A stretch of 29,973 nucleotides of DNA from Candidatus Thorarchaeota archaeon. GTDB taxonomy: Archaea > Asgardarchaeota > Thorarchaeia > Thorarchaeales > Thorarchaeaceae. The DNA lies in NCBI GenBank assembly GCA_048882325.1, contig JBHLRS010000038.1, forward strand, positions 1 to 29,973, in the 5' to 3' direction. This document shows positions 19,953-25,448 of the stretch, piece by piece. The position numbers and the translations under genes are program-made. The notes beneath the pieces were generated by a model. That model ran no database searches. It worked only from the letters and a program-made list of their open reading frames with translations, and had not been told where the DNA came from. Within the stretch, counting starts at the first letter, position 1, and every line of letters starts with the position of its first letter.

Positions 19953-21038
19953 CTAAGACAGTTGTGATTGTGTGCTGGGAAGTAGTCGAATGTACTCTTT
20001 TCCTGCGCCTGATTTGGTCCCTATCATAATCTGAAAGAATTGTGTTTCTCCATCTGTGGAAGTAACTCGTTGTAGAGTACCTGTGACCTCAACCCGGTCA
20101 CCAGTCTGTAAAAGACCGCCAAATGCACCATCATACACCATGATTCGACGTACTGATTCACCGTCGATTGCATCAAGAGGTGGTGAATGACCCTGATACA
20201 ACGCAGGATGAAAGAGACCATAGTCAGCGTTCTCAATATCCATGACCACAGTAGTGAGTTTTTCTGATATTGCAGTATAAGACTCGCTATCATGTTGAAT
20301 CGGTGCCTCACCTGGACGTAATATGGGTGTGATCCCGATACAGACATCTCCCAAACACAGTGCCTTTCGACGCATGAATAGGTTCTGTAAGTCCTCGGAC
20401 TTCATGATGGGGACTCTGTCATGGACTCGCTTCATGGCATGTTTCCAGTCAGCAAGTTCACGTAGTCGTGTATCTTCTCTTCCTTGTGCGAGGGATTCAT
20501 AGTTGTTGTGAAGAGTCCAGGACGTGTCAAAGCCATAGATGTTCATATTGATGTCCGAGCGTTCTAGGCTGTGACCCTTCCACAATATGCTTCCTGCAAC
20601 TCCAATGTTGTCAAATGAAATGCCCAGTGTGTCATGGAGTGTTTCTGCTCCATGTTTCACAAGCTCCTCTAGGGAGTCTTGGGGTCCAACCTTCATGATC
20701 TCCTTCAATCGAAGTTCTGGATTGAAATATTTCCCCACCCTCTCTCTTGGAGGTTCAAGAAGATCTGTGCCAAAGTGTGAGTCGGAAACCACATAGTCAG
20801 GAGGGAGTATGTTCATACCATCAACAGTGGAACTTACACTACCCCAGAATGTTCTCTTGTATTTGATGTCACCAGATTGCCACTCACCGGATGGGTCTGG
20901 AATATATTTGAGAAACGACAGTATCCTATCTGAGGGTTGGATGTATCCAAGAACCACAAAGACTCGACCTTCTACATCATGAAATATGTCTCGGTCTCTC
21001 ACAAGGGCAGGTAATTCAACGCATGCAGGGTCAGCCAA
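19953..21038 (-). CDS. Archaeal predicted nucleotidyltransferase (COG1665-like)
   Basis: RDRD...F.V.GY.QP..ILSFLKY.P N-terminus; GVAGSIL...SDINMNIYG; C-terminal OB-like GDRVEVTGTL. Confidence 0.75.
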   Translation of the reverse strand: MADPACVELPALVRDRDIFHDVEGRVFVVLGYIQPSDRILSFLKYIPDPSGEWQSGDIKYKRTFWGSVSSTVDGMNILPPDYVVSDSHFGTDLLEPPRERVGKYFNPELRLKEIMKVGPQDSLEELVKHGAETLHDTLGISFDNIGVAGSILWKGHSLERSDINMNIYGFDTSWTLHNNYESLAQGREDTRLRELADWKHAMKRVHDRVPIMKSEDLQNLFMRRKALCLGDVCIGITPILRPGEAPIQHDSESYTAISEKLTTVVMDIENADYGLFHPALYQGHSPPLDAIDGESVRRIMVYDGAFGGLLQTGDRVEVTGTLQRVTSTDGETQFFQIMIGTKSGAGKEYIRLLPSTQSQLS

Positions 21039-22349: not shown

Positions 22350-22937
22350 TTAGGGCATGTCGATGTTCTGACTGAGAACCAGCCATACCCTTGCTAGGAT
22401 GGGGGTTATCAGAATGACAGAAGGTAGACCTGTTGTCAGCAAGGGCAGCAGGATAAACCCAATTCCAGCTAGCGCAGAAGTCTGCTCAACAAAGAGACCA
22501 ATCACAACAAGCAGGAGTGCTGTAAACACAAGTCCAATTGCTGATAGAATGGATAGCTTCCCTAACGATCTGCCCTTGGAGAAGTCATAGGAGGCCAGTC
22601 CTACGACAAAACCTAGTACCCCGTAGGCCATGGCAGGAAGTGTTAGAATGACGACAGTGTTGTAGAGCAGCAGATCATATGTGATCATTCCAAGATAGCC
22701 TGCAAGAAATCCAGCTAGGGGTCCACGTATGCCACCAACCACTGCGATGATAGCCAAAGAGGGTACAAGTCCTAGTTTGATCAACGTGAACATCTTGAAT
22801 GGCATATTGATTGAGTTGACCAGGGCAAAGATACCTGCGCCACCAAGTCCGAATATGACGGTGACAAGGGCAACAGTCCAGTGTTGAACCCTGAATCCTT
22901 CTCTAATGGTGGTTCTTTCATCGTTCTCGTCAGACAT
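22350..22937 (-). CDS. ECF transporter S-component-like membrane protein
   Basis: About 6 hydrophobic segments; PSLAIIAVVGGIRGPLAGFLAGYLG..YDL pattern. Confidence 0.65.
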   Translation of the reverse strand: MSDENDERTTIREGFRVQHWTVALVTVIFGLGGAGIFALVNSINMPFKMFTLIKLGLVPSLAIIAVVGGIRGPLAGFLAGYLGMITYDLLLYNTVVILTLPAMAYGVLGFVVGLASYDFSKGRSLGKLSILSAIGLVFTALLLVVIGLFVEQTSALAGIGFILLPLLTTGLPSVILITPILARVWLVLSQNIDMP

Positions 22938-22939
22938 AT

Positions 22940-24583
22940 TCAAGCACCCTCCATGATCACTAGTTGGTAAGTTCCTGGTTGTAATGACAGAGTATAATCG
23001 CCCCCACCAGCGGCCTCAAGTTGCGCAAACTGACTACCACCACGATAGGCTATGGGAAGTGAGTTGAAGTTACTGAATGTCAAAACGCTAGGGCTGTCTA
23101 CTCTGATGTTCAGAATGAATCCTGACTTGTTGGGGTCCCACTGAGCTTGGTAGACCCAGATGTTGTCATCATCAGCTGCACTGATGTAAGGATAGTCCCA
23201 GAACTCTGTGGATCGAGCATCGGCCAAGTCGCGGACAGTGACTGGAACACCAGACCAGACCGTGAATCCAGAAAGGACAGCTGAAAGGAATGGTTCTAGT
23301 GGGGATGTGTCATAGTACATCTCTCTCCTATCTGGAGACCAGACTATGTTTGCCATGTCCTGCAGTAGGTTACCAAGACGGTTTCTTGTGTTGTAATCAC
23401 CTCTCTGATTTGCCAGGGTCATTGTAAAGACTGTGCCTAGAATTCCGAAGACATCAGCAAATGATGTAGGATGAGCGTATGAACCTAACATATACATCAT
23501 GTCCCCAGACAGATCCCTACTGTAGGCATCGATGAAGGTTGGATACTTTGGGATGGTGATTTCAGGAATCGTGTACTCAAGGAAGGTCAGCGCCCATGCC
23601 GTGCCGTATGAGTTGAGTTTTGGCCCTCCGACCAGGTGGTCAACAGCCTGTCCTGGAATCTCCTGAGGACTCGATTCTGCATTGGGACCATACCCCACAG
23701 GTTGTTGAACAAAATAACCATCGATGTAAAGGCCTAGATCATCCGTGATGTTCTCTTCTATGAAATCTAATCCGTACTCCCACATCCCGCTCTCCATGTA
23801 GCTGGTATCATACATGTTGTCATAGAGTTCAGTTGTGTAGATGGGGATGCTGTTACACTGAACAAATACAACATAGGGCTCGCATGGAATAAGACCTGTA
23901 CCCCAAACCCCTCCCGGCTTTGGATTACCAAATCTGTCTGTCGTCACTGATAACTTCCAATCATTGATGTACCAGTCCAGTTCATCTGTAACTGCTCCTG
24001 TGTTAAAGTTTCTCTCATAGAGTGCCATCATGAGGGCATAATGTCCGGTCCACATGATATTGGCAGGTCCTCTGAAACCCCCTGTATAGATGTCATCAGC
24101 ATCATGATGAGTGGCGTTAGGATAGTAGTAATCAGTGAATCCGGGAATGGAAGCCCACTCATAGTATTCCATGGACTTGTTTCCATATTCATCAATTGTA
24201 GTGTTCATCTTCAAAAGCAGTGTGTATGCATGATTCTTGTATGCCTCTGTTCTATATCCAGGTACTGTTTCGCTGACCGCCGCAAAAGTGTAAGCAACAA
24301 ATGCACTCACGTACTGAATTGCCCACATGTAATTTTCAGCATACCATCCATCCCATAGGTTAACTGGTTGGTCCACTATCAACCTATTGAAGTAATTGAC
24401 AATCCCGAGCTGTTCATGGGTCAGTGCTGAATAATCAGCAAAGTTGAAGGTGATACCATCAATTGTCTGAACACTCATCCTGACTGGTGGTGGCGGCATG
24501 TTACCAAATGTCAGTCCTGCAAAGACAATAGTGATGACAGAAGCGGCGATAACGAACTTGTTCTGTTTGAGTACATGGGACAT
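22940..24583 (-). CDS. Linalool dehydratase/isomerase (LinD)-family protein with N-terminal signal/anchor
   Basis: QYVSAFVAY, KM, NIMWTGHYALMMALY, IPCEPYVVFVQCNS, SYGTAWAL match LinD blocks; hydrophobic N-terminus. Confidence 0.85.
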   Translation of the reverse strand: MSHVLKQNKFVIAASVITIVFAGLTFGNMPPPPVRMSVQTIDGITFNFADYSALTHEQLGIVNYFNRLIVDQPVNLWDGWYAENYMWAIQYVSAFVAYTFAAVSETVPGYRTEAYKNHAYTLLLKMNTTIDEYGNKSMEYYEWASIPGFTDYYYPNATHHDADDIYTGGFRGPANIMWTGHYALMMALYERNFNTGAVTDELDWYINDWKLSVTTDRFGNPKPGGVWGTGLIPCEPYVVFVQCNSIPIYTTELYDNMYDTSYMESGMWEYGLDFIEENITDDLGLYIDGYFVQQPVGYGPNAESSPQEIPGQAVDHLVGGPKLNSYGTAWALTFLEYTIPEITIPKYPTFIDAYSRDLSGDMMYMLGSYAHPTSFADVFGILGTVFTMTLANQRGDYNTRNRLGNLLQDMANIVWSPDRREMYYDTSPLEPFLSAVLSGFTVWSGVPVTVRDLADARSTEFWDYPYISAADDDNIWVYQAQWDPNKSGFILNIRVDSPSVLTFSNFNSLPIAYRGGSQFAQLEAAGGGDYTLSLQPGTYQLVIMEGA

Positions 24584-24643
24584 CGATGATCACCTTACAG
24601 GAATCTATGTTATCAAAGGTGCCAATGAGTTTAGTGTTAGGGC

Positions 24644-24666
24644 TATGTCTGACATAAATAGTTTCT
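24644..24666 (-). promoter_or_regulatory. Putative BRE/TATA for the LinD-like gene, overlapped by inverted repeat TATGTC-T-GACATA
   Basis: Minus strand reads AGAAACTATTTATG; inverted repeat at 24644-24656; AGGTGA Shine-Dalgarno at 24590-24595. Confidence 0.45.
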
Positions 24667-24681
24667 AGCGAACAAAGCGCG

Positions 24682-24701
24682 CTGCCGACATATGTCGGTA
24701 G
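24682..24701. promoter_or_regulatory. Palindromic operator candidate CTGCCGACATATGTCGGTAG
   Basis: Perfect 14-bp core CCGACATATGTCGG (24685-24698) in the divergent intergenic region, just before TATA-like TTCATAAA. Confidence 0.65.
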
Positions 24702-24734
24702 AGTTCATAAATGTTTAATTTCTATAATTTAGTC

Positions 24735-25448
24735 ATGCCATTATTCGAAATCGTGTTTAGAGCTAGGTATGAAAACCCACTTAGTGAGATTACAAGAAAC
24801 AATCCATCGGTCAAGATATTCCAGTGGTGCAATGATGAACATGACATCATGGAACTAATCATGCAGAAGCAGGAGGACTACAGTCAAATTCGCAGTGATA
24901 TGACAAAAGCCGTGGAGATAGTCGATGAGATACACAATGGTGGAAACACGCATGTCATTACAAGAATGTGTGCGTGTGGAGGACCAGGTACAGTGCAGCA
25001 CTACCTCGGTGACCCTAATCTCCTACTTATTCCGCCAATTGCCTATGAAAATGGGTGGGAGCATCTCAGACTGATTGCATTCAAGCATGAGAATGTCAAG
25101 AAGCTAATGGCAAAACTGAGAAAGGACAATTTTGAAGTCGAGATTCTCAGAAAGAAGCCATTCGATGGGTATATCGCCAGTTCTCTGACACTCACAACGG
25201 ATGCACTTTTCTCGGGATTGACCGAAAAACAAGTTCATGCGCTCCTCACAGCATATGCTCAGGGATACTTCAGGTATCCAAGAGGTTCAGATCTTCAGAC
25301 AATTGCCTCTAAGGAGAAGATATCCAGAACTACGTTCTTGGAGCATTTGAAGAAGGCTGAGAACAAGATAATCACCGCGCTCATTCCCCACATTCAACTC
25401 TTCAATCGTATTCCAAAGGACCGAAAAGAGTCTATGGCCATTATCTAG
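24735..25448 (+). CDS. HTH_10 (bacterio-opsin activator-type) transcriptional regulator
   Basis: LTEKQVHALLTAYAQGYFRYPR...IA...ISRTTFLEHLKKAENKI. ATG 24735 preferred. Confidence 0.9.
   Translation: MPLFEIVFRARYENPLSEITRNNPSVKIFQWCNDEHDIMELIMQKQEDYSQIRSDMTKAVEIVDEIHNGGNTHVITRMCACGGPGTVQHYLGDPNLLLIPPIAYENGWEHLRLIAFKHENVKKLMAKLRKDNFEVEILRKKPFDGYIASSLTLTTDALFSGLTEKQVHALLTAYAQGYFRYPRGSDLQTIASKEKISRTTFLEHLKKAENKIITALIPHIQLFNRIPKDRKESMAII

Follow-up and report, generated by a model that had tools for sequence, protein, structure and literature searches.

The linalool dehydratase/isomerase LinD of Castellaniella defragrans 65Phen (EC 4.2.1.127; PDB 5G1U, 5HLR and 5I3T) interconverts myrcene, (S)-linalool and geraniol. 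It is a cyclic homopentamer in which Y45 and, from the neighbouring subunit, D39' lie in the active site, while the C49-C102 disulfide caps the substrate channel. To our knowledge, no members other than LinD and the linalool isomerase Lis have been characterised in this small family, which adds or removes water at unactivated C=C bonds without a cofactor, a chemistry valued in biocatalysis. LinD acts on isoprenoid allyl systems, with its active site at the pentamer interface (PMC6013536), and has been proposed to serve in periplasmic defence (PMC4791888). Lis from Thauera linaloolentis 47Lol (EC 5.4.4.4) is membrane-anchored and requires a reductant (PMC4791888). It is a single chain of 644 aa, in which four N-terminal membrane helices are fused to a catalytic domain that lies in the cytoplasm.

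S-components of ECF systems (RibU, ThiT, FolT, PanT and BioY; PF07155/PF12822) and the solitary BtuM share a six-helix membrane fold, whose outward loops cap the ligand pocket. In group II ECF systems one energising module serves several S-components. As far as we know, S-components function with no protein partner outside the cell.

Here we describe an Asgard locus in which a LinD-related gene is directly followed by a gene for an S-component-like protein. The window, i.e. the whole stretch of DNA that was analysed, covers positions 1 to 29,973 of contig JBHLRS010000038.1 (Candidatus Thorarchaeota archaeon, an Asgard archaeon; assembly GCA_048882325.1) and its relevant features are collected in Table 1. 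A preliminary description of this DNA had placed the three open reading frames correctly, with the Ldi-like stop abutting the S-component-like gene and an HTH_10 regulator transcribed divergently; the intergenic spacer is 127 nt long and Pfam recognises both an HVO_A0563_N and an HTH_10 domain in the regulator. The partner frame spans 22350-22943 on the minus strand, its likely true start being the ATG at 22937. Our literature search found no paper that joins linalool dehydratase with archaea or Asgard lineages, nor any on a pair of Ldi and S-fold proteins.

Table 1. Features of the Ldi-like locus, in positions of the window.
Feature	Position	Strand	Basis
Ldi-like gene, 547 aa (LinD superfamily, Asgard subfamily)	22940..24583	-	ORF; Pfam PF18566; AF2 model
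Partner gene, 195 aa, membrane protein of ECF S-component fold	22350..22937	-	Weak PF07155 score and fold match
HTH_10 / HVO_A0563_N regulator gene (neighbour, outside the conserved unit)	24711..25448	+	245-aa ORF; Pfam
Gene junction: GGAGG, Ldi TGA stop, 2 nt, partner ATG	22935..22955	-	Sequence
TATA-like box AAACTATTTAT, about 70 nt 5' of the Ldi start	24654..24664	-	Candidate promoter, sequence only
Perfect 14-nt palindrome CCGACATATGTCGG	24685..24698	.	Sequence and conservation
N-terminal transmembrane helix, aa 8-26, N-side Lys-rich	24506..24562	-	AF2 helix 9-26; homologs
(alpha/alpha)6 barrel catalytic domain, aa ~50-463	23195..24436	-	AF2 model, LinD superposition
NIMWTGH motif; M177, H181 = LinD M125, H129	24041..24061	-	Alignments to LinD
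C-E-P-x6-C motif; C234, E235, C243 = LinD C171, E172, C180	23855..23884	-	Alignments to LinD
C-terminal beta-sandwich domain, aa 466-545, absent from LinD	22949..23188	-	Strands, pLDDT >90

The Ldi-like protein

The 547-aa protein matched the Pfam family Ldi (PF18566) with 58.4 bits, for a cut-off of 26.1 (E 1.1e-15), and the LinD chains of the PDB with E 1.5e-7 as a single sequence and 3e-14 as a family profile; the NCBIfam search gave no match. Homology to LinD had already been read from four motifs in the preliminary description. All four are present, the stretch at 23849-23890 corresponding exactly to I232-S245, and the LinD strings given there for comparison recur in HMMER alignments to the PDB LinD chains. 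More than 200 full-length homologs were found, which puts the features of this open reading frame far beyond chance.

The AF2 model (pLDDT 90.5) had LinD as its top structural match, with Z = 39.9 and an rmsd of 2.2 Å over 342/363 residues at 22% identity. Foldseek gave E 7.8e-14 and a TM score of 0.78 (normalised to LinD), and the next-best folds (GH105, GH76 and epimerases) reached Z ~21 only. The (alpha/alpha)6 barrel anticipated for this protein is thus predicted by the model and superposes on that of LinD. M125, H129, C171, E172, C180 and Y66 of LinD are kept together with the C-x8-C spacing, and the active-site Cys pair, His and Glu that had been pointed out earlier do align, C171/C180 with C234/C243. 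These two cysteines are the sole ones of the protein. M177, H181, C234, C243 and Y91 were invariant in 37/37 Asgard sequences and in 22/22 sequences across the superfamily, while position 235 was E in 33 and Q in 4 of the 37 Asgard homologs. Like LinD, the Asgard protein would be cofactor-free, thiol-dependent and oxygen-independent. The motifs are common to the whole superfamily and therefore say nothing about the substrate.

In a tree of the superfamily, an Asgard clade (SH-aLRT 100) stood apart from the LinD-like clade, which contains P0203 (635 bits to 5I3T). By its position in this tree, the 547-aa protein belongs to a separate, Asgard-only clade and is not a LinD ortholog. The substrate-shaping residues D39', Y45 and C49-C102 of LinD are not conserved. 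Y45 falls inside a LinD-specific insertion; D39 aligns with N66 or R67 depending on the alignment, in a weakly aligned segment where, of 37 sequences, 15 have N and 14 have D in that column; and the residues aligned with C49 and C102 are N75 and T128.

Every Asgard member has one hydrophobic segment. The region of the N-terminal helix is conserved at K9, T25, N28 and P30, and the helix looks uncleaved, whereas LinD carries a Sec signal peptide; it is probably an anchor. The lysines before this single helix (positive-inside rule) and the conservation of glycosylation-type sequons suggest that the enzyme probably faces outward: the protein has five N-x-S/T sequons, one of which, N127-T-T, is kept in 37/37 homologs. 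LinD is likewise exported from the cytoplasm. The location outside the cell that had been predicted earlier gains support from these features, and the hydrophobic N-terminus (aa 8-26), the PPPP stretch (aa 30-33), the sequons and the beta-rich C-terminal extension (aa 466-545) listed in the same description are all real. This extension is an addition with respect to LinD, and many distant relatives align as far as residues ~496-514. Lis also has a LinD-family domain attached to the membrane, but the Asgard system differs from it by a single helix, a catalytic domain predicted to face outward and a separate six-helix partner.

Exported Ldi domains with both motifs also occur in presumably bacterial proteins, such as Desulfomonilia lipoproteins of 640 aa and MYXO-CTERM proteins of ~600 aa, although few sequences of this type carry organism names. 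In many of them the alignment extends into the first part of the C-terminal beta domain. They differ from the Asgard protein in carrying either a lipoprotein signal or a sorting tag at the C-terminus and, in a group of 640-668 aa, an FN3-like N-terminal domain. The members of this group were considered as partner-Ldi fusions and rejected, since they are lipoproteins with that FN3-like domain. No fusion of Ldi and S-fold was present among 388 fetched proteins, and a database search for longer ones found none, which is weak evidence. No S-component gene neighboured the bacterial-type Ldi gene at the one locus inspected. LinD and its bacterial relatives lack an S-component-fold partner, which for the Asgard protein is obligate. 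Its different architecture and dedicated membrane partner define a third, archaeal branch of the family.

The partner and the predicted complex

We surveyed 400 Asgard genomes and counted linkage for Ldi genes whose 3' end is on the contig. The partner gene lay directly downstream on the same strand in all 59 cases (59/59 Ldi genes with an intact 3' end, in four Asgard families) and it also adjoined Ldi in the 7/7 distant loci that were fetched, so that the synteny of Ldi and S-component put forward for checking in the preliminary description proved to be conserved. Within the genus, both genes were carried by the same 12 of 27 genomes. Roughly half of the genus lacked the pair, some genomes of over 90% completeness among them, and in Ldi-negative genomes it was cleanly missing from an otherwise conserved backbone; in one genome (G381) both genes contain stop codons. 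The link between Ldi and its partner is obligate, and the two genes are gained and lost jointly. At their junction, the GGAGG about 10 nt upstream of the partner ATG and the 2 nt that separate this ATG from the Ldi TGA suggest translational coupling.

The genes around the pair are retained in Ldi-lacking genomes and their presence is therefore backbone synteny. An eight-helix membrane protein without any family match and a second isopentenyl-phosphate kinase near Ldi loci (IPK by NCBIfam, 177 bits vs 120) were considered as a salvage pathway with Ldi and rejected, since they fill the same slot in 4/4 Ldi-negative genomes. The Ldi-positive genome of the window lacks this eight-helix protein/IPK pair: it encodes a single IPK and, in place of the membrane protein, just a paralog with 31% identity to it.

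The partner of the window scored 22.8 bits against PF07155 (ECF-ribofla_trS), below the cut-off of 26.7, and orthologs from three other lineages exceeded it with 35.1 (Helarchaeota), 26.9 (Hodarchaeales) and 28.8 (526-aa clade). Its model (pLDDT 86.4) best matched the S-component 4hzu_S, with Z = 16.5 and an rmsd of 3.1 Å over 162/164 residues. The top 15 of 48,161 chains were all S-components (Z from 16.5 to 9.1) and the first unrelated chain had Z = 7.8. As modelled, the partner is a six-helix protein of S-component fold. Unlike the known S-components, it is part of a separate subfamily restricted to Asgard archaea, with a gene that invariably comes right after that of an extracytoplasmic enzyme, to which the protein is predicted to bind.

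Prediction of the enzyme-partner complex yielded ipSAE values of 0.66, 0.70 and 0.74, compared to 0.00 for the best control; ipSAE is the model's own confidence and no measurement, and there is no comparable solved complex. Of 80 solved complexes 58 attained the ipSAE mark, as did 2 of 110 mismatched pairs; these counts are rough, since our own alignments were used. The runs shared at least 91% of their contacts, with a partner pLDDT of at least 84. In the complex model the N-terminal helix of the enzyme packs along the last helix and the outer loops of the partner. The interface has a self-consistent membrane topology and holds five of the 13 invariant partner residues (P46, G122, L125, P165 and P179). 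The Ldi-like enzyme is thus predicted to bind its S-fold partner. Judging from helix order alone, its active-site face would point at the partner.

Proposed mechanism and alternatives

We propose, with a probability of roughly 0.55, that the two genes encode a fixed complex of an ectoenzyme and an S-fold protein that performs LinD-type chemistry on a hydrophobic alkene or alcohol. The self-contained operon would produce a membrane complex in which one N-terminal helix holds the enzyme in the membrane, the barrel and the beta-sandwich being displayed on the outer face and the barrel resting on the outward loops of the six-helix partner. The reduced Cys pair together with the His, Met, Glu and Tyr residues would act as in LinD, and at the enzyme an unactivated alkene or allylic/tertiary alcohol would gain or lose water or have its hydroxyl shifted, with neither cofactor nor oxygen. 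The hydrophobic ligand would pass directly between the active site and the partner pocket, and the product would most likely enter the cell. By analogy with LinD, an isoprenoid substrate is plausible. In a wider interpretation, which we advance tentatively and whose odds fall somewhat short of even, the S-component fold would have been recruited by an extracytoplasmic LinD-type enzyme as its obligate membrane subunit, giving a machine for catalysis-coupled uptake or hand-over of hydrophobic alkenes and alcohols that is apparently confined to Asgard archaea. Such an arrangement would be new both to the LinD family and to ECF-type proteins, which are defined by the lack of a partner outside the cell. 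Should the complex prove real, the partner would be the first S-component-fold protein to act together with an extracellular enzyme, and anaerobic sediment archaea would have a new way of handling hydrophobic and possibly isoprenoid compounds at their surface. As the pair is compact, with clear catalytic residues and a testable predicted interface, its function is directly addressable by heterologous expression.

Alternatively, the enzyme could convert a compound and transiently feed a normal S-component, which would dock on a shared EcfAA'T module encoded at another locus and topple with ATP to release the product into the cytoplasm. The true S-component fold of the partner agrees with this import scheme, as do the module sharing established for group II ECF systems and the EcfT/CbiQ genes found in trans in the genome of the window and in 5/5 other pair-bearing genomes. 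However, no EcfT adjoined the pair in any inspected locus, and finding EcfT is not diagnostic, given that a canonical RibU-type S-component is also encoded in the genome of the window; EcfT was rejected as a means to distinguish an ECF-dependent from a stand-alone partner, since it occurs in every genome checked. The packing of the enzyme helix along the last helix and outer loops of the partner, as predicted, also speaks against a transient encounter, and a tethered ectodomain of ~60 kDa should hinder both docking and toppling. We consider ECF-driven import unlikely.

The complex might also modify lipids at the surface: the S-fold would lift an outer-leaflet isoprenoid (polyprenol/dolichol, a quinone or an unsaturated archaeal lipid) to the enzyme, where a double bond would be hydrated or isomerised without import. 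In the model the enzyme is tethered to a membrane protein at the surface of the membrane, which fits such a role, and so do the action of LinD on isoprenoid allyl systems (PMC6013536), the membrane anchoring of Lis, the other characterised relative (PMC4791888), and the glycosylation and lipid genes nearby (GT4; STT3 ~5 kb away in loci L001 and L003). But an accessory pair missing in about half of the genus would be odd for a core lipid step, and the neighbouring genes stay in place when Ldi is lacking, as expected for backbone synteny, which makes lipid modification improbable as well.

The divergent regulator

Orthologs of the regulator are 237-238 aa long and align from residues 8-9, suggesting that its real start is probably M9 (ATG at 24735). 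The CCGACATATGTCGG palindrome was conserved 5' of the regulator gene at 5/5 loci, one of them L019 with NMO as the neighbour, and probably serves as the operator in the promoter of the regulator itself. Another palindrome, TATGTCTGACATA (24644-24656), was considered as a shared operator and rejected, being conserved in neither L017 nor L025. Both palindrome motifs showed no excess over chance within the window. The TATA-like box might be the Ldi promoter; the same AAACTATTTA box is found upstream of Ldi in L017 and L025.

The preliminary description had proposed a regulated system for an isoprenoid alkene or tertiary alcohol, which would amount to an inducible terpene-catabolic or detoxifying module controlled by this regulator. 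In the window, L017 and L025 the spacer between the two genes indeed contains the operator, at ~20 nt from the TATA-like box of Ldi, so that local co-regulation could occur, and a detoxifying role would recall the periplasmic defence suggested for LinD (PMC4791888). Against this, the regulator was found at none of the 7 distant Ldi loci and, within the genus, 5' of Ldi at just 5 of 12 loci. It is carried by 7/13 Ldi-positive and 7/15 Ldi-negative genomes of the genus, its operator stays with it where NMO adjoins, and no genes for downstream terpene oxidation were found nearby. With no association with Ldi and an operator that travels with the regulator, its membership in the module was rejected: the HTH_10 regulator is a backbone neighbour outside the Ldi unit. 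The regulated module as first described is highly unlikely.

Least probable of all is a protein devoid of hydratase or isomerase activity, i.e. a binding protein or pseudoenzyme capturing a ligand for the S-fold, a role conceivable in that ECF systems otherwise have no extracellular binding protein, or an (alpha/alpha)6 carbohydrate-active enzyme, glycosidases and epimerases being the next structural neighbours (Z ~21); yet the LinD score is nearly double that of any glycosidase, and the LinD Cys pair, His, Met and Tyr have stayed invariant in a protein that has otherwise diverged to ~26% identity, which argues for retained LinD-type catalysis.

Fold, catalytic residues and family of the enzyme

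The window's host genome, that of a Thorarchaeota (Asgard) member, measures 3.6 Mb and is 93% complete. The three open reading frames announced in the preliminary description are present in an ORF listing of the window, as is every motif quoted for the 547-aa Ldi protein; the motif coordinates 23849-23890 are exactly residues I232-S245, and the LinD strings set beside them are those printed in the HMMER alignments to PDB chains. The LinD domain expected from these motifs was recovered with Pfam Ldi PF18566 (58.4 bits, cut-off 26.1), and PDB LinD chains were matched with E values of 1.5e-7 (single sequence) and 3e-14 (family profile). The model computed from 37 homologs was confident (pLDDT 90.5, pTM 0.89) and LinD was by far its nearest solved structure (Foldseek E 7.8e-14, TM 0.78). 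The superposition on LinD proposed earlier gave, with VIA-align, Z = 39.9 and an rmsd of 2.2 Å over 342/363 residues at 22% identity, the next structural neighbours being GH105, GH76 and epimerase barrels at Z of about 21.

Key residues of LinD are H129, Y45, D39', C171 and C180 (PMC12455561, where numbering is one lower), and PDB entry 6THM has M125 as target. LinD is a pentamer whose active site is located at the subunit interface and whose substrate channel is capped by a disulfide (PMC6013536). In the alignment, M125, H129, C171, E172 and C180 of LinD correspond to M177, H181, C234, E235 and C243 of Ldi. M177, H181, C234 and C243 are invariant in 37 Asgard homologs, and the E235 column contains E in 33 of them and Q in 4. 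Ldi has no other cysteines. It differs from LinD at other positions: Y45 sits inside a LinD-specific insertion without Ldi counterpart, D39 aligns with a variable N/D column in Ldi homologs, and the positions of the C49-C102 disulfide are occupied by N75 and T128. Because the motifs N(I/V)M(Y/W)xGH and CEPx6CN are common to most of about 90 distant relatives, they are best read as a marker of superfamily chemistry and not of a substrate.

Only 115 relatives came out of an exhaustive profile search covering 1.84 billion representatives; the close ones that bear names come from Thorarchaeota, Hodarchaeales and Helarchaeota, and the named distant ones are bacterial MAG proteins. A tree built from 85 sequences placed the 14 Asgard rows in one clade (SH-aLRT 100) and 10 short proteins in a separate one (SH-aLRT 100), which contains P0203, the stand-in for characterised LinD (635 bits to 5I3T). 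Given these separate clades, the kinship with LinD holds at the level of the superfamily but not of the LinD clade, and the Ldi protein is classed as a superfamily member, not a LinD ortholog. Some Asgard Ldi proteins carry the NCBI label 'linalool dehydratase/isomerase domain-containing'; no paper on them was found. Three distant Ldi-domain proteins (P0174, P0173 and P0141) either are lipoproteins that begin with an FN3-like domain or are MYXO-CTERM-tagged, one of the lipoproteins being named Desulfomonilia, and they probably represent a surface-exposed bacterial LinD-family set.

The partner protein and its coupling to Ldi

The partner most likely starts at ATG 22937, 2 nt past the Ldi TGA stop, and GGAGG lies about 10 nt upstream. 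Its score is slightly below the Pfam S-component threshold (22.8 against 26.7), which orthologs of three other lineages exceed (35.1, 26.9 and 28.8). The partner model (pLDDT 86.4) matched ECF S-components only: in an unbiased structure search against 48,161 chains, S-components took each of the first 15 places (Z 16.5 to 9.1), led by 4hzu_S (Z 16.5, rmsd 3.1 Å, 162/164 residues), the first unrelated chain appeared at Z 7.8, and a Foldseek search was concordant. Weak partner-profile matches (49-52 bits) were seen within longer ORFs of 359-384 aa in three genomes from f22, an Asgard family without Ldi; these ORFs may encode a different S-fold protein plus an extra domain.

The claimed synteny of Ldi with the S-component gene was borne out among 400 Asgard genomes, where all 59 Ldi matches whose 3' end is on the contig are directly followed by the partner on the same strand. 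Ldi was detected in 53 genomes, the partner in 54 (three weak matches left out) and both in 52. At seven loci of distant relatives, with Ldi identity down to 26-35%, the partner gene begins 10-13 nt after Ldi. No S-component-type neighbour was present at the single bacterial Ldi locus inspected, and no fused form was found among 388 fetched proteins or, as weak evidence, in a database search for longer forms. Within the window's genus (27 genomes) the same 12 genomes possess both genes and 15 possess neither; several of the latter are 90-95% complete, which makes the pair an accessory unit. Where Ldi is missing within the genus, the flanking backbone is retained, minus only the pair. Tandem pairs in three Thorarchaeota genomes indicate that the unit duplicates as a whole. 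In genome G381 the copy on contig C157 is intact, and a second copy has in-frame stops (one TAA in Ldi, two TGA and one TAG in the partner), both genes appearing to decay together.

Features of the window and of related loci
Feature	Location	Remark
Ldi	window 22940-24583(-)	547 aa
Ldi membrane helix	residues 9-26	predicted model
Ldi (alpha/alpha)6 barrel	up to about residue 463	predicted model
Ldi beta-sandwich	residues 466-545	predicted model
Partner	window 22350-22937(-)	195 aa
Regulator	window 24711-25448(+)	HTH_10/HVO_A0563_N
361-aa protein	window 19953-21038(-)
Tandem pairs	G365:C16:214043-219949; G376:C361:7236-11892; G395:C335:8421-11138	Thorarchaeota
Second pair copy	G381:C373:2959-5183	in-frame stops
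Retained backbone		regulator, FUR, peroxiredoxin, eight-helix membrane protein, IPK, GT4, 361-aa protein, Trm5
Eight-helix protein + second IPK	L001:8505-10145; L038:9007-10710; other loci
Weak partner-profile matches	G170:C10:636883-637416; G230:C7:46802-47392; G252:C519:1606-2139	family f22
330-aa protein	L008:9774-10766	526-aa Asgard clade
STT3	L001:1-20; L003:1-229	oligosaccharyltransferase

Predicted enzyme-partner complex

Three runs of complex prediction yielded ipSAE values of 0.66, 0.70 and 0.74, against 0.00 for the best control. The same mark was attained by 58/80 solved complexes and 2/110 mismatched pairs, counts that are only roughly valid because our own alignments were used. 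The runs share at least 91% of contacts, with partner pLDDT of at least 84. No solved complex similar to the pair was found, so that the pass is not attributable to a remembered structure. The prediction thus supports binding of enzyme and partner to each other.

In the complex model the enzyme membrane helix (7-30) lies along the last helix (172-183) and the L1 hairpin (44-57) of the partner, and barrel loops 356-376, 398-412 and 425-429 rest on its outward loops. This arrangement is consistent with the topology accepted for S-components and with an enzyme helix in N-in orientation, and its interface takes in 5 of the 13 invariant partner residues. Judging from helix order, the contacting loops would share the barrel face with the N-termini of the catalytic helices. 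The unusually well conserved helix sequence and the invariant N127-T-T sequon suggest that the helix is a retained outward-facing anchor and not a cleaved signal peptide.

Folds, conserved residues and the coupling of the two genes are shown, and their binding is predicted; the reading best supported by all this is that a LinD-type enzyme, probably facing outward, and a membrane protein of S-component fold form a fixed complex. As to chemistry, orientation and direction of hand-over, we infer that such a complex would hydrate or dehydrate a hydrophobic alkene or alcohol, or shift its hydroxyl, in a thiol-dependent reaction, the ligand being handed over directly between enzyme pocket and partner pocket.

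The divergent regulator and the wider neighbourhood

The regulator gene is divergent from Ldi, with 127 nt between them, and had been counted as a member of the module. This was rejected: it is missing at 7/7 distant loci and, within the genus, occurs in 7/13 Ldi-positive versus 7/15 Ldi-negative genomes. Of 12 same-genus loci, no more than 5 have an ortholog of it (81-88% identity) upstream of Ldi, in one of them with NMO in between. A perfect palindrome, CCGACATATGTCGG, just upstream of the regulator is kept beside it in 5/5 loci, irrespective of the neighbour. We read the regulator as a backbone gene with its own putative operator; local co-regulation of Ldi in this genome is possible, but not as a property of the module. 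Regulator orthologs are 237-238 aa long and their alignment begins at residue 8-9; the start is probably M9 (ATG 24735), not 24711, and TTCATAAATG around 24711, directly downstream of the palindrome, looks like the regulator TATA box.

Genes around the pair in the window are housekeeping genes (tRNA modification, PCMT, GT4, NMO). The 361-aa protein, without Pfam match, is found next to Trm5/TYW2 across Thorarchaeota loci (41-81% identity) and is best regarded as a backbone gene of the tRNA-modification neighbourhood. In about half of Thorarchaeota loci, Ldi adjoins a membrane-protein gene and a kinase gene, the latter identified through NCBIfam (177 bits versus cut-off 120) as encoding an isopentenyl phosphate kinase. 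A functional link of these two genes to Ldi was rejected, since they stay in 4/4 Ldi-negative genomes and are absent from the window's Ldi-positive genome; the two units are independent, and the proximity of IPK points to isoprenoids only weakly, if at all. The window's genome has a single IPK (contig C9) and a membrane-protein paralog only 31% identical (contig C10). The eight-helix membrane protein, for which no family match was found, and the second IPK form their own conserved pair at this slot in many Thorarchaeota, with or without Ldi.

At the Thorarchaeota loci L001 and L003, STT3 is found upstream at a distance of about 5 kb, with ribosomal-protein, Sec61-beta and SHMT genes between it and the pair and no sign of a functional link. 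At locus L008, about 2.5 kb downstream of the pair, a 330-aa protein has a squalene-hopene-cyclase C-terminal / prenyltransferase alpha-alpha toroid domain (32 bits); this other terpenoid-type barrel near the pair may be a coincidence.
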